64,000 bases of DNA from Nitrospirales bacterium (GTDB lineage Bacteria > Nitrospirota > Nitrospiria > Nitrospirales > UBA8639): the NCBI GenBank assembly GCA_963422365.1, contig OY729426.1:1504001-1568000 (forward strand), read 5' to 3'. The position numbers are program-made. Shown one piece after another: positions 33,001 through 39,000 of the stretch (the first letter of the stretch is position 1; each line of letters opens with the position of its first letter).

Positions 33001-36000
33001 TGGTGACAGGGCGCGTGGAACGGGGGCAAGTGAAAGTGGGCGATGAGATCGAGATTGTGGGGTTAGGGGAGACGCGGAGCACGGTGGTGACGGGCGTAGA
33101 GATGTTCCGGAAGGTGTTGGATGAAGGGCAGGCGGGGGATAATATTGGGGCGTTGTTGCGCGGGACGAAGAAGGATGACGTAGAGCGGGGGATGGTGTTG
33201 GCGAAACCGAAGAGCATGACGCCGCATACGCGGTTCAAGGCGGAAGTGTATGTATTGACGAAGGAAGAAGGAGGGCGGCATACGCCGTTTTTCAATGGGT
33301 ATCGGCCACAGTTTTATTTTCGGACGACGGATGTGACCGGGGTGGTGCAGTTGGTGGAAGGCGTGGAGATGGTGATGCCGGGGGACAATACGACGTTTAC
33401 GGGGGAATTGATTGCGCCGATTGCGATGGAGCAAGGGGTCCGGTTTGCCGTACGAGAAGGAGGGCGAACGGTGGGAGCCGGCGTCGTCACCGACATTCTC
33501 GCCTGAGGAAGGTCGATACTTGAGGTCGGCACGAGAGGGGAGGTGTTATGCGGGTCATTATTTCTTTAGCCTGTGGGGAATGTAAGAGGCGTAATTATTC
33601 GACGATGAAGAACAAAAAAAATGATCCTACTCGCTTGGAAGTGAAAAAATATTGCCGGTTCTGCCGAAAACATGTCCCCCATAAGGAAGTAAAATGATTG
33701 GGTTCCCCATTGATGAGAGTCATGAAGGGGCATGGTGTCAATGGCTAGCATGTCGGTCTCCAAAACCGAAGGTCCGGGTTCGAGTCCTGGTGCCCCTGCC
33801 ACCATACGATTGCGTGTTCGAGTAAGGAAGGCGAGATGAAAGCGGCATGAAGATACTCTGGTCGAAAATTACGGAATTTCTCACCGAGGTAAAAGGGGAG
33901 TTGAAGAAGGTTTCGTATCCGACGCGTGATGAAACCATCGGTTCCACCTCGGTGGTGGTCGTGTTTTGTTTTATTATGTCTTTGTACCTCTCGATGGCTG
34001 ATTCCGTTTTAGTGTGGCTGGTCAGTCAAATCCTTTGAAAATTTAAGGTCAGGCTCTATGTCAAAAAATTGGTACGTGATTCACACCTATGCGGGCTATG
34101 AAGGTCGAGTGCGGACTTCCTTGGTTGAGCGAGTAACTCAAATGGGGCTTGAGGAAGAGTTCGGGCAGGTCCTGGTCCCCACTGAGGATGTGATCGAAAT
34201 CAAGGATGGAAAACGTCGCGCGTCCAAGCGAAAGTTTTTCCCCGGGTATGTGCTGGTCGAGTTGCAGTGCCCCGTCAAAGACGCAACGGTGATGATGATA
34301 AAAGAGACTCCCAAGGTCACGGGGTTTGTGGGCGGGGGAGAGGCGAAGCCCATGCCCCTGCCGAGAGAGGAAGCGGATTCTCTTCTGAAGCAAATCGAGT
34401 CTGGTGTTTCTCTTCCTCGAGAGCGAGTCTTTTTTTCCAAAGGCGATAATGTGCGGATCGTTGATGGGCCGTTCATGGGCTTTAACGGCTTAATCGACGA
34501 GGTAGATGACGAGCATAGTCGAGCCAAGGTGTTGGTCAGCATTTTGGGTCGTTCGACTCCGGTCGAATTGGTGTTTACGCAGATAGAGGGGGGATAAGGT
34601 TGTCGGGAATGCCGTGAATGGTTGTATCCGTGTCGGCAACAGGTGACGTTGTTCGTGAGTCAACGAACTGGCAGAAAAAAAAGAGGATAGAGCGATGGCA
34701 AAAGAGATCATAACGCAAATCAAATTGCAGATTTCCGCGGGGAAGGCCAATCCTGCTCCACCCGTTGGCCCTTCCTTGGGTCAACATGGTCTCAACATTA
34801 TGGATTTCTGCAAGCAATTTAACGCGAAGACCCAAAAGCAGGAAGGAAGCATCATCCCTGTTGTCATTACCGTCTATCGAGACCGGAGTTTTACCTTTAT
34901 TACGAAAACCCCTCCGGCTGCCGACCTCTTGAAGAAAGCGGTGGGGATTATCAAGGGATCCGGGGTTCCGCAGAAGGATAAAGTTGGCGCGATCTCCCGT
35001 GCACAATTACAGGAAATCTCCAAGCAAAAAATGGAAGATTTGAATGCAGTGAATATTGAAGGAGCGATGAAGATTATCGAAGGCACCGCAAGGAGTATGG
35101 GGGTCACGTTGACTGACTAACGTGTTCGTTGGTTTTCAAAGGGGAGTGTGAGTCGTGGGAAAGCAATTACAGGGCGCGGCAGCAAAAGTTGAGTCTAAAC
35201 TGTACGGTCTCCAGGAGGCGAGTGAATTCGTGAAGCAGGCGGCCTATGCCAAATTTGACGAGACCGTGGAATTAGCCATTCGGTTAGGCGTTGATCCGAA
35301 ACGCGCAGACCAAATGGTGCGTGGCACGACGGTTTTACCTCATGGCACGGGGAAAAAGGTCAGGATTTTGGTGTTTGCCAAAGGGGAAAAAGAGCAAGAA
35401 GCCAGGCAGGCTGGTGCCGATTTTGTGGGTGTTGATGATTTGTTGGAAAAAATTAAAGGGGGATGGTTGGATTTTGATCAAGCCATTTCCACTCCTGACC
35501 TGATGGCTTCTGTCGGAAAATTGGGAAAAGTGTTGGGGCCACGTGGTCTGATGCCCAACCCCAAGACAGGAACCGTGACATTTGAAGTGGGGAAGGCGAT
35601 CGAGGAAATCCGGAAAGGTCGGGTCGAGTACAAAGTGGATAAGGCCGGGAGCGTCCATGTGCCGATCGGCAAAGTTTCGTTTGCCGTATCGCAAATCACC
35701 GAAAATGCGCAGGCGGTTTTTACGTCGGTGGTGAAGGCAAAGCCCTCCTCAAGTAAGGGGAAGTATCTTAAGGGTGCGACCATGTCGAGCACCATGGGGC
35801 CGGGTGTTCCCTTGGAATGTACGACCCTGGCTCGCCAATTTGATTAGTCGCGGTGTAAAAAGGAGCCGGGCATGAAAAAGGAACAGAAGGCAGGGGTGGT
35901 TTCCGATTTGCACGAGAAGTTTGTTAAGGCCAGGTTGGCCGTGGTGACGGAATGTGGAGGGATGCCGGTTAATCAAGTGACTCAGTTGCGACGTCAACTT

Positions 36001-39000
36001 CGTGGATCTCAGGCAGAGTTGAAAGTGGTGAAGAATTCCTTGGCTGCGAGGGCTGCGGTGGGGACCTCGTTATTGCCCGTCGTGTCGTTGCTGAAGGGGC
36101 AAGTCGCGGTGGTCATCGGCTACGATGATCCGATTTTGCCTGCCAAAATTCTTCGGGATTTTATTAAGCGAGAAAAATGCGATGGGAAAATTCTTTGGCG
36201 GGGTGGTGTCATAGAAGGAAAAGCTCTTGAGCCTGCACAACTGCTCGTGACAGCGGATTTGCCTTCCAAAGAGGTTTTGCTATCAACGCTGGTGTCTGCT
36301 ATGCAAGGGCCTCTTCGAGGAATGGTGGGAGTGCTTCAAGGGATTTTACGAGGATTTGCTGCCGTGCTGGTTGCGATTCAAGACAAAAAGAAAGGAGAAG
36401 GAGAAATGGCTGCAACGGAGGCAAAGCTTTCCAAAGATGACATTCTGGGGGCCGTTGAAAGCATGACGGTTTTAGAGTTGTCTGAACTGGTCAAGGGATT
36501 TGAAGAAAAATTCGGCGTGACGGCAGCGGCGCCGGTCGTGGTAGCTGCACCGGCTGCAGGGGATGGTGCGGCTCAGGCTGCCGAAGAAAAAGACTCCTTT
36601 GATGTGGTGTTAGCCAGTGCCCCGGCTGACAAGAAAATTCAAGTCATTAAAGTGGTGCGCGAGATCACCGGGCTTGGGTTGAAAGAAGCCAAAGATTTAG
36701 TGGAAGGGGCACCCAAACCGGTCAAAGAAGGTGCGGCAAAAGATGAGGCGGAAACGCTTAAGAAGAAACTCACGGATGTAGGGGCTACAGTCGAAGTCAA
36801 GTAGTGGGCGAGGTTTGATGCGGGAGCATTTCCCCTGGTTGCTCAGGACAGGTTGTATTACAAGCATAGATGCAGAAGGAGCCGAATATGCCTCAACCTC
36901 CATTGCCGGGAATCATCAAGCGCACTGATTTTTCGAAAATTCAGTCGACGATTGACATTCCTGACCTCGTCGAAGTTCAAAAACGCTCATACGAGGGGTT
37001 TTTGCAAAAAGATACCGACCCTGAGCGTCGTGCGGAAAAGGGGCTTCAAGCCGCGCTCATGAGTGTCTTTCCCATTGCAGATTTTAATAGTTCAGCCATT
37101 CTGGAATTTTCCAGTTATTCGCTGGGAACGCCCAAGTACGATATGCGAGAATGTTTGGAGCAGGGCATGACCCTTGCCGCCCCGTTAAAGCTACGAATCC
37201 GGCTGGTGGTATTTGATCCGCAGGAAAAGGGGGTAAAGAACAGCAAGGTGCTTGATGTCCGAGAGCAGGAAGTGTACGTGGGCGAGCTTCCTCTGATGAC
37301 GGATCGGGGAACGTTTATTATTAACGGCACGGAGCGGGTGGTGGTGAGTCAGTTGCACCGTTCTCCCGGTGCATCGTTTAGTCATGATAAAGGGCGTACC
37401 CATTCCAGTGGCAAAGTCTTGTTTTCCGCGCGCATCATTCCGTATCGAGGGTCCTGGTTGGATTTCGAGTTTGACGCGCGGGATATTTTGTACGTCCGCA
37501 TCGATCGCCGACGCAAAATGCCCGCCACGATCTTGTTGAAGGCGTTTGGCTCGTCAACGGATGACGTGCTGAAGATGTATTATCCCATTGAGGACATTCG
37601 GGTTTCAGATGGGAAACTGATGCGGAAGGTGGATCCTGAACTTCACGTGGGATTGCGTTCGTCAGTCGAAGTCTTCGAGGGGGACGGTAAGGACCTCATT
37701 GTGCGAGAAGGGACGAGGCTCACCAAGTCGTTAATGGCAAAAGTTCTGGCGGCCGGTGTGAAAGAGATCCAGGTGAAGCCGGAAGAATTGGTTGGGCGAG
37801 CGGTGTTGACGGAAATTCTGGATGTGGAAAAGGGAGAGGTGCTGGTTGAAAAAAATCAACGGTTGACTTTGCCCATGATTGAACGGCTTCTTGCATTGAA
37901 GCCTTTTAGTTTCAAGGTGATTTATTTGGATAGTGCGGCGGCTACACCGATCATTTTAGATACCTTGGATGCTGAACGGACGAATTCTCAAAAGGAAGCC
38001 TGGGTGGAAATCTACAAACGACTTCGACCGGGAGAAATGCCTTCCGTAGATTCGGCCAAGCTCTTGTTTGAAAACTTGTTTGTCAACCCTAAGCGGTATG
38101 ATCTGTCTCCAGTCGGACGGCTGAAGATGAATAACCGTTTTTCGTTGGACCTTCCTCTCCTCCAGCGGGTGCTCACCTCGCAAGATGTGGTGGAAGTGAT
38201 CCGCTGTCTCGTCGAATTAAAAATGGGTAAAGGCGATGTGGATGACATTGATCATTTGGGGAATCGTCGGGTTCGGACCGTCGGAGAATTGCTCGAGAAT
38301 CAGATTCGGTTGGGATTAGCCCGAATGGAGCGTAGCATTAAAGAACGGATGAATCTACTCGACATGGAGACAGTGCTGCCGCACGACTTGATTAATGCCA
38401 AACCCATTGTGGCCGCCATTAAAGAATTTTTTGCCGGCAGTCAGTTGTCGCAGTTTATGGATCAAACGAACCCTTTAGCTGAAATTACCCATAAGCGAAG
38501 ACTGTCTGCCTTGGGGCCTGGCGGGCTTACTCGTGAGCGCGCGGGGTTTGAAGTGCGCGACGTCCATCCGTCCCACTATAGTCGTATTTGCCCTATCGAA
38601 ACCCCTGAAGGGCCGAATATCGGGCTCATCACCTCGTTGGCGACCTATGCGCGAATTAACGAATTCGGGTTCATTGAAGCCCCATTTCGAAAAGTCCAAA
38701 AGGGACGTGTCTTGCGGGATGTCGAATTTCTTTCTCCCTTGGAAGGAGAACGCTACGTCATTGCCCAAGCCAATTCCCAAGTGGATTCAGCCGGTCGCTT
38801 GTTGTCCGATTCGGTGACGGCAAGGTCTGAGGGAGAGTTTATTTCCACGACGCCGGATCGAGTTGATTATGTGGACGTGTCCCCGAAGCAAGTGGTCAGT
38901 GTCGCAACCGCGTTGATACCCTTTCTCGAGCATGACGACGCAAACCGTGCGTTAATGGGGTCGAATATGCAGCGTCAGGCTGTGCCACTCGTGCAGAGTG

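Follow-up and report, generated by a model that had tools for sequence, protein, structure and literature searches.

In a genome of the bacterial order Nitrospirales, the genes for the ribosomal stalk proteins L10 (rplJ) and L7/L12 (rplL) form one reading frame, here called rplJL, that is a complete uL10 and a complete bL12 in a single chain. The fusion is conserved across the order, and the ancestral L12 start inside it is under selection at the nucleotide level. From these sequence data, we consider it probable that the frame yields both an intact L10-L12 chain and free L12 made by internal initiation. L12 is the sole ribosomal protein present in several copies and its scaffold is single-copy, so a fusion of the two looks forbidden; the nested start would resolve this conflict.

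Structure and context of the fused frame

Positions refer to the window, the whole stretch of 64,000 nt of DNA that was analyzed.

34695-35120, + strand: rplK (L11), canonical upstream context
35155-35847, + strand: rplA (L1), canonical upstream context
35857..35865, + strand: Shine-Dalgarno (SD) sequence of the L10 start, 6 nt before the ATG (from sequence; duplex -8.1 kcal/mol)
35872..36804, + strand: rplJL, fused uL10-bL12 frame, 310 aa (sequence, Pfam/NCBIfam)
35872..36393, + strand: uL10 moiety, residues 1-174 (Pfam/NCBIfam; residues 3-174 align to Thermotoga maritima L10 5-179, PDB 1zav)
36268..36399, + strand: L12-binding C-terminal helix, alpha8 region, residues 133-176 (alignment and predicted structure)
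36389..36397, + strand: internal SD sequence AGAAAGGAG, in codons K173-K174-G175-E176, 8 nt before the internal ATG
36394..36429, + strand: linker, residues 175-186, with the ancestral L12 N-terminal extension (predicted disordered, pLDDT < 50)
36406..36804, + strand: bL12 frame nested in rplJL, 132 codons, beginning at the ancestral ATG (domain matches, junction alignment)
36433-36573, + strand: bL12 dimerisation domain
Between the dimerisation and C-terminal domains, + strand: Ala-rich bL12 hinge (disordered in the model)
36598-36801, + strand: bL12 C-terminal factor-binding domain
36870..40859, + strand: frame directly 3' of rplJL, canonical downstream context, which we take to be rpoB from its translation and the gene order

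Translation of 35872..36804 gives 310 codons without an internal stop. On the encoded protein, Pfam places L10 at residues 1-98, L12_N (PF16320) at 188-234 and L12 (PF00542) at 243-310, while NCBIfam places L10 at 4-173 and L7/L12 at 184-310, each above its cut-off. The rRNA-binding domain of L10 scores 90.5 bits with PF00466 (cut-off 22.8) and 147.7 with NF000955 (cut-off 85), and the bL12 half, in which dimerisation domain, hinge and C-terminal domain are all present, scores 163.7 bits with TIGR00855 (cut-off 84.4). With both moieties complete in a single frame, the description of rplJ and rplL in an earlier note on this DNA, as one 310-codon frame from which the L10 stop codon and the spacer are gone, is borne out.

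The L12-binding helix is intact. It aligns without gaps to residues 116-179 of 1zav, has the length of the three-dimer helix of T. maritima and is continuous in the predicted structure (pLDDT about 85); alignment and model both give it repeated predicted L12-dimer sites of ~10 residues. The N-terminal extension of L12 that lies in the linker also occurs in unfused relatives (L186-L189). AlphaFold docks the tethered N-domain without confidence (linker < 50, L12 N-domain 57-64, pTM 0.48).

The frame keeps the canonical position in the order rplK-rplA-rplJ-rplL-rpoB-rpoC, where it stands as one frame instead of two separate ones, 24 nt from the rplA stop to its own ATG. An Rfam scan of window positions 30000-41000 found no L10 leader RNA (RF00557); the element was likewise absent from all 16 Nitrospiria loci scanned, unfused members of the class included, and present at two of four loci from other phyla. 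No sigma-70-type promoter was found inside the L10 part, and promoter-like sites in 33400-37200 numbered 2 versus 2.6 expected.

The genome itself (one contig, 98.6% complete) has a single L12 match and a single L10 match, both in rplJL. A second rplL, which the earlier note had also reported missing, is ruled out by this search and by tblastn with the N- and C-domains of L12, which gave nothing else of note. An assembly artefact is ruled out as well: contigs of three runs from three studies (X5, X6, and X7) span the junction identically, and the fusion is conserved order-wide.

Distribution and origin of the fusion

Matches were found in 239 of the 251 Nitrospirales genomes searched, and the 184 that read across the junction contain no stop. 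Among the matches listed, 176 genomes have full-length, stop-free frames (150, 16, and 10 in successive searches) and in a further 8 a partial contig reaches past the junction; in 2 the contig breaks off ahead of it. Of the 12 genomes with no match, 5 were re-searched and lacked both L10 and L12. The fusion is common to all four families of the order, as had been claimed: it occurs in each, and a stop at the junction was never seen. Its absence from the other classes of Nitrospirota also held in the sample checked. It is not limited to the order, since one genome of the same class outside Nitrospirales (G292) is fused too, and this fusion is independent of that in Nitrospirales.

Four long open frames considered as further fusions (G307, G252, G285, and G311) all proved split when read. 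Six split loci (L246, L254, L256, L260, L263, and L267), which their depositors titled Nitrospira, Nitrospirales or Nitrospiraceae, were rejected as counter-examples because the tree places them outside the fused clade. Full-length L10-L12 frames occur in at least 20 other clusters at 50% identity, many of them singletons at 90% identity. Fused records outside Nitrospirales are labelled Armatimonadota, Fervidibacterota, Bipolaricaulia, and Dehalococcoidia, those of Fervidibacterota and Dehalococcoidia being known here from protein records; among the matches listed in genome scans with the proteins of these two groups, none was one of their fusions.

The two genes were probably joined once, in the ancestor of Nitrospirales. 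Because unfused relatives carry the same SD motif 30-45 nt after the L10 stop, the joining deletion would have taken out the L10 tail with its stop codon, and the spacer as far as the SD sequence of L12.

The internal start and its possible products

The internal SD sequence is an exact 9-nt complement of the 3' end of the genome's own 16S rRNA (anti-SD). Over 94 sequences, the duplex at the internal ATG averages -13.2 kcal/mol (weakest, -9.3). For 538 other ATGs in frame the figure is -3.8 kcal/mol, and 2.8% of these sites are at least as strong as -9.3. The ATG is invariant in the junction alignment, and its surroundings are the least structured in the scanned gene region (40-nt folding energy -2.0 to -2.8 vs -4.2 to -20.9 elsewhere).

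Synonymous change at the internal SD sequence is suppressed 4-7-fold on the 94-sequence tree. G175 underwent 5 synonymous steps, between GGA and GGG only, versus 23-35 at 13 conserved glycines outside the junction and 17 at G177; K174 and K173 underwent 2 and 1, respectively, versus 6-20 at 23 other lysines. The residue after the internal Met is A in 46, S in 23, P in 22, and T in 3 of the 94 sequences, all of which allow removal of the initiator Met, a test that is weak alone because another conserved Met (198) is also mostly followed by T or S.

The junction sequence in this window is K-K-G-E-G-E-M, its Met encoded by the ATG at 36406. The conservation of the ATG and of a strong SD sequence within the fused frame, as claimed earlier, stands, but K-G-E-G-E-M does not hold throughout: one clade of family f3, making up 6 of the 94 sequences, has K-E-E/G-x-M instead. 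This clade is nested among K-G-x junctions (support 1.0 with a K-G-E sister); its SD sequence is shifted 2 nt towards the ATG and occupies a different reading frame, and SD and fusion are both kept. The last two codons before the ATG vary (G/E/S/D/Q, then E/D/S/A/P/Q/T/K). The two codons that separate SD from ATG show 0 stop gains in 94 sequences versus 3.5 to 17 expected if neutral, a range over the tree length used that counts tip codons only and rests on 59 saturated four-fold sites, where stops may also be disfavoured for reasons other than the tether.

By these measures, the ATG at 36406 behaves like a real start. The earlier suggestion of one gene with two products is supported by the synonymous constraint, the anti-SD match, the low structure, the N-terminal residue rule and an SD sequence kept through a change of frame.

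We infer that one mRNA is read from two in-frame starts. Initiation at 35872 would give one L10-L12 chain, forming the stalk base on 23S rRNA, with one L12 attached through a flexible stretch of about 12 residues, and de novo initiation at 36406 would give free L12, several times more often. Termination-reinitiation is one route for separate genes; it is impossible here because nothing terminates. As L10 keeps its three-site helix, about five free L12 would be needed: free L12 would fill the three dimer sites, and the tethered copy would most likely be one partner of the outermost dimer, giving one tethered and five free.

Published proteome tables of Nitrospira moscoviensis (PMC9381531) and N. 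marina (PMC8115632) provide protein-level counts. In N. moscoviensis, rplJL was detected by 69-90 spectra per sample (PMC9381531, supplement Table S1), and its iBAQ is 2.4x the median of 22 other 50S proteins, where extra free L12 predicts 2.1-3.4x; the value lies inside the spread of single-copy proteins, whose iBAQ ranges over 0.23-1.22e9. In N. marina, the fused ORF ranks 9 of 31 ribosomal proteins by NSAF, at 1.45x the median of the other 30, where one plus five copies would give ~3x. No rplJ or rplL rows were present in 12 of the 15 supplementary files of PMC11410670.

Other readings of the locus were weighed against these observations. The chain might be a precursor, cut in the exposed linker to leave an ordinary non-covalent L10(L12)6, with internal initiation supplying the remaining L12. 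The linker is predicted to be disordered and is Lys-rich, and maturation of a ribosomal protein by cleavage is known from L27, cut by Prp in Bacillota; we nevertheless regard this as unlikely, since linker residues vary beyond those that the SD sequence demands (K-G-E vs K-E-E; last two codons variable), so that no cleavage motif is evident, and a cut product gives no reason for purging stop codons. Drift could instead have left two products and a harmless tether, its L12 a seventh arm or inert and reversion rare. The junction looks like a simple deletion that stops at the old SD sequence, and such fusions arise easily, as the at least 20 other clusters attest. Set against this are the lack of reversion in all 184 genomes, the 0 stops (3.5-17 expected under the assumptions above) at codons that a single substitution could turn into a stop, giving back two genes and leaving the SD untouched, and the survival of the fusion through junction remodelling in the f3 clade, which together make drift a distinctly improbable account.

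That the fused chain is the only product, the stalk having one tethered L12 or drawing its arms from two such chains and the internal SD sequence being a relic or pause site, would suit the N. marina value of just 1.45x the median. Strong synonymous constraint, an invariant ATG, open structure at the internal start and three retained dimer sites make it very unlikely; L12 N-domains also fold as dimers, and a single L12 dimer is suboptimal in Escherichia coli, which then grows poorly (PMC3299993). Least likely of all is the release of free L10 at the A-rich junction, by a programmed -1 frameshift or by drop-off, with the fusion left as a minor product: A-rich K-K-K codons do lie 5' of the SD sequence in this window, but only 10 of 94 junctions have an in-frame X XXY YYZ heptamer, and in many lineages Arg, Gln, Thr, or Pro codons replace the lysine run.

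Beyond the preferred reading of an intact chain plus free L12, the tether may be adaptive and recurrent, a proposal we rate as possible rather than probable. Several lineages (Nitrospirales, G292, and the records labelled Armatimonadota, Fervidibacterota, Bipolaricaulia, and Dehalococcoidia) would have converged independently on a stalk like that of archaea and eukaryotes, whose base has its own factor-binding arm. The tethered L12 might seed the outermost dimer, so that no ribosome lacks an arm, and a 1:5 ratio might be set on one mRNA by elongating ribosomes versus internal initiation, without an L10 leader RNA.

Earlier records and known systems

The earlier note held that annotators had passed over the locus without comment, which needs correction. 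A protein of the cultured Nitrospirales member N. moscoviensis, named 'rplJL' in PMC9381531 (supplement Table S1) and 'Multifunctional fusion protein' in UniProt (A0A0K2G9H7, 312 aa), is the same fusion; the record is a label, and the internal start, the products and the distribution are unaddressed in its available text. For relatives, NCBI records carry a 133-aa L7/L12 that begins at the internal start. At JGI and NCBI the whole frame is named L7/L12 or L10, or the short form alone is called, so that 'L10' can be missing from annotations, and such naming can mislead marker-gene work. Our literature search found no paper that discusses the fusion, and the available text of PMC3353972 does not mention one; the fusion is labelled in databases but seems never to have been studied. 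If the tether stays, a widespread nitrifier group, some of whose members are in culture, builds its stalk in a way not seen in any of the solved structures matched here. The gene also offers a natural test of the need for several dimers, of the exchange of stalk arms and of how two in-frame starts could give products in a ratio of five to one.

The canonical stalk, uL10(bL12)4 or uL10(bL12)6, is a non-covalent assembly with 4-8 L12 to each L10, and its genes, rplJ and rplL, are separate (E. coli; T. maritima, PDB 1zav/1zaw/1zax). Like it, rplJL has complete, ordinary family members as moieties, the usual gene order and a three-site helix of T. maritima length. Unlike it, no stop separates the genes, one L12 is covalent, free L12 must start inside a translated frame, and the L10 leader RNA is absent; none of 50 matched PDB sequences has both moieties in one chain.

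Archaeal and eukaryotic uL10/P0 has its own C-terminal extension, which resembles the C-terminus of the stalk proteins and, according to the available text of PMC1635324, does not exist in Bacteria. As in P0, the stalk base of rplJL would bring one factor-binding tail beside free stalk dimers; unlike in P0, this tail consists of an entire bacterial bL12, dimerisation domain included, and it is not homologous. Archaeal L10 models score 24-35 bits on rplJL (cut-offs 331-547), over the N-domain only. We know of no nested start for the free subunit in P0.

Nested in-frame starts are established in bacteria for infB (IF2 alpha/beta), clpB, and cheA (long and short). With these genes rplJL shares one frame, two potential N-termini and an SD sequence hidden in coding sequence, here with internal SD and start under nucleotide-level selection. 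It differs from them in that the short form would have to exceed the long one about five-fold, that both forms would be structural parts of one complex, and that it goes back to the fusion of two old genes.

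The fused frame and its distribution

35872-36804 (+), rplJL fused frame, 310 codons, between rplA and rpoB
32301-33506, tuf gene, 401 aa, adjoining the tRNAs at 31741-32179
48367-49587, 406-aa frame, similar in length to tuf, preceded by a 717-aa frame, downstream of rpoC

L10 and L7/L12 are encoded in one uninterrupted frame, as the earlier note had claimed: in profile scoring, rplJL residues 4–173 form a whole uL10 and 184–310 a whole bL12, both above curated cut-offs, and contigs of three sequencing runs from three studies span the junction without difference. Searches of the source genome (one contig, 2.50 Mb, 98.6% completeness) gave rplJL alone, with neither L10 nor L12 elsewhere, in agreement with the claimed lack of a second rplL. 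Among the neighbouring genes, the 406-aa frame is probably a second tuf, which commonly follows fusA.

Across the order Nitrospirales, 239 of 251 genomes matched rplJL, and none of the 184 read across the junction (176 over the full length, 8 on partial contigs) had a stop there, upholding the claim of an order-wide fusion; two further genomes stop at a contig edge, and 53 of the 239 stand outside this count. One genome, G200, has an L10 broken at residues 52–81 and an open junction. Five of the 12 genomes without a match were searched again and yielded neither L10 nor L12; these (G171, G093, G167, G183, and G215) are rated 95–99% complete, one being a single contig, and the absences are probably assembly gaps. 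Of 80 loci compared, the 44 whose titles name Nitrospirales, Nitrospira, Nitrospiraceae, or Nitrospirae were all fused, and 275 additional loci (L045–L080, L200–L438; some sharing a contig) comprised 17 fused, each with a Nitrospirales-type junction, 257 split, and one incomplete. Two trees built from L1, L10, and L12 group the fused families in a single clade, with support of 0.52 and 0.99.

Confinement to the order, also claimed, held against other classes but not within the class Nitrospiria. Of 110 genomes from other classes, 108 matched and none of these was fused, 82 showing separate matches and 26 single matches with 1–3 stops each. Within the class but outside the order, 68 of 71 genomes matched and one (G292) was fused; seven single matches contained stops, the remainder were separate L10 and L12 matches, and all 19 loci read apart from G292 were split. 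The G292 fusion (G292:C122:783-1706; loci L179, L199), in the sole genome of its family, reads ...Q-E-G-K-E-E-A-M across the junction, where a purine run resembles an SD. Because G292 lies far from the Nitrospirales fused clade on the trees and its junction differs, it appears to be an independent fusion, seen in a single genome and possibly a one-off error.

Internal start, selection, and origin

36389-36397, internal Shine-Dalgarno (SD) motif AGAAAGGAG, 8 nt upstream of the internal L12 ATG at 36406

The internal SD is exactly complementary to the 3' end of the source genome's 16S rRNA, and the ATG is kept in all 94 distinct fused genes, always followed by A, S, P, or T (Met198 also mostly precedes T or S). 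Suppression of synonymous change coincides with the SD: G175 shows five steps, GGA/GGG only, against 23–35 at 13 other conserved glycines, and K174 and K173 show two and one, against 6–20 at 23 other lysines. Mean SD strength is -13.2 kcal/mol at the internal ATG versus -3.8 at 538 other in-frame ATGs, and the internal-start region is the least structured part of the gene region scanned. An in-frame slippery heptamer occurs at the junction in only 10 of the 94 genes. The K-G-E-G-E-M reading noted earlier is not universal: in one clade of the family f3 the SD lies 2 nt nearer the ATG and reads K-E-E, with the junction one codon shorter and the frame open. This clade is nested among K-G-x junctions in the tree; its altered amino acids, with SD and fusion retained, point to selection on both.

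Between SD and ATG lie two codons, at each of which one nucleotide substitution could split the frame into separate genes again while leaving the SD unchanged. Expected stops at these codons, estimated from tip codons with a rate matrix derived from 59 four-fold sites, number 7.8 + 9.5 under the fitted tree length and 1.6 + 1.9 under a conservative length of 15; none was observed in the 94 genes, where the two codons tolerate five and eight amino acids. With four-fold sites saturated and kin not independent, this absence is a suggestive, not strong, sign of selection for the fusion.

In unfused near relatives (L186–L189), L10 ends a few residues past its helix and is followed by a stop, a 30–45 nt spacer, AGAAAGGAG, and an L12 whose N-terminal extension matches that of the fused one. 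Because the fused junction is shorter than this tail plus spacer, we infer that a deletion reaching the old L12 SD, not read-through of the L10 stop, would have joined rplJ and rplL. No L10 leader RNA was detected at the source locus or in 16 fused and unfused loci of Nitrospiria, and two of four loci from other phyla had one; since it also went undetected in unfused Nitrospiria, leader loss is not a consequence of fusion. The rplA–rplJ gap (35848-35871 here; loci L179–L198) is 10–60 nt in most Nitrospiria, and the Rfam L10 leader was not detected in these loci even with gaps of 100–280 nt.

Stalk composition and protein abundance

The L10 helix of rplJL aligns gap-free to the three-dimer helix of Thermotoga maritima (1zav), and AlphaFold predicts a single helix (133–176, pLDDT about 85), a disordered linker (175–186), and low-confidence L12 domains. 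One L12-dimer site occupies about 10 helix residues and Escherichia coli limited to one dimer is impaired, according to PMC3299993, and L12 copy number tracks helix length (PMC4592705). Six L12 places and one tethered chain would imply five free L12 per stalk, or six if the tethered L12 stays outside. Nitrospirales L10 also carries an insertion of ~3 residues (E-K-C/R-D/E; 36172-36192, L10 residues 101–107) after helix 88–101, absent or shorter in the outgroups compared.

Annotators were said to have passed the locus without comment; published N. moscoviensis rows instead list it as rplJL, UniProt A0A0K2G9H7 'Multifunctional fusion protein' (312 aa, 69–90 spectra; PMC9381531). In the first sample its iBAQ reaches 2.4 times the median of 22 other 50S proteins listed (rank 2 of 23), with four 50S rows outside the 22 and single-copy proteins ranging five-fold. 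In N. marina (PMC8115632), a 311-aa 'L7/L12' has an NSAF 1.45 times the median of 30 others, and the word 'L10' is absent from the protein table rows. Tryptic peptide counts in 12 related sequences give expected ratios of 1 for fusion only, 2.1–2.4 for one plus three, and 2.8–3.4 for one plus five. As whole-protein values pooling both halves, the N. moscoviensis data lean for two products and the N. marina data against. The fusion is real and extends across the order, and we consider it likely to be a two-start gene yielding a tethered arm and free arms.

Other lineages and known systems

Fusions in other phyla, reported earlier, were recovered: among the best 150 representatives at 50% identity, 21 cover both moieties continuously. 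One is Nitrospirales-type; the other 20 are labelled, where named (19 of the 20 looked up), Armatimonadota, Bipolaricaulia, Dehalococcoidia/Chloroflexota, and Fervidibacterota; 13 of those looked up have no other member at 90% identity, and sequencing errors may be among them. At the protein level, most carry Gly-Gly or Glu-Gly a few residues ahead of the junction Met, as a translated GGAGG motif would read. In three (P0129, P0142, P0178), Val or Leu replaces this Met, as expected of an internal start at GTG or TTG. Five further proteins (P0122, P0123, P0128, P0137, P0147) contain 6–8 tandem L12 C-terminal-like domains and are probably not ribosomal, since P0123 starts with a lipoprotein-like signal.

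As far as found, annotation pipelines label the fusion and studies of it are lacking; our literature search, with most subscription papers beyond its reach, returned no paper on a natural L10–L12 fusion. PMC1635324 states that Bacteria lack the C-terminal extension found in archaeal L10 and P0; the rplJL fusion is a functional parallel of that extension, not a homologue.
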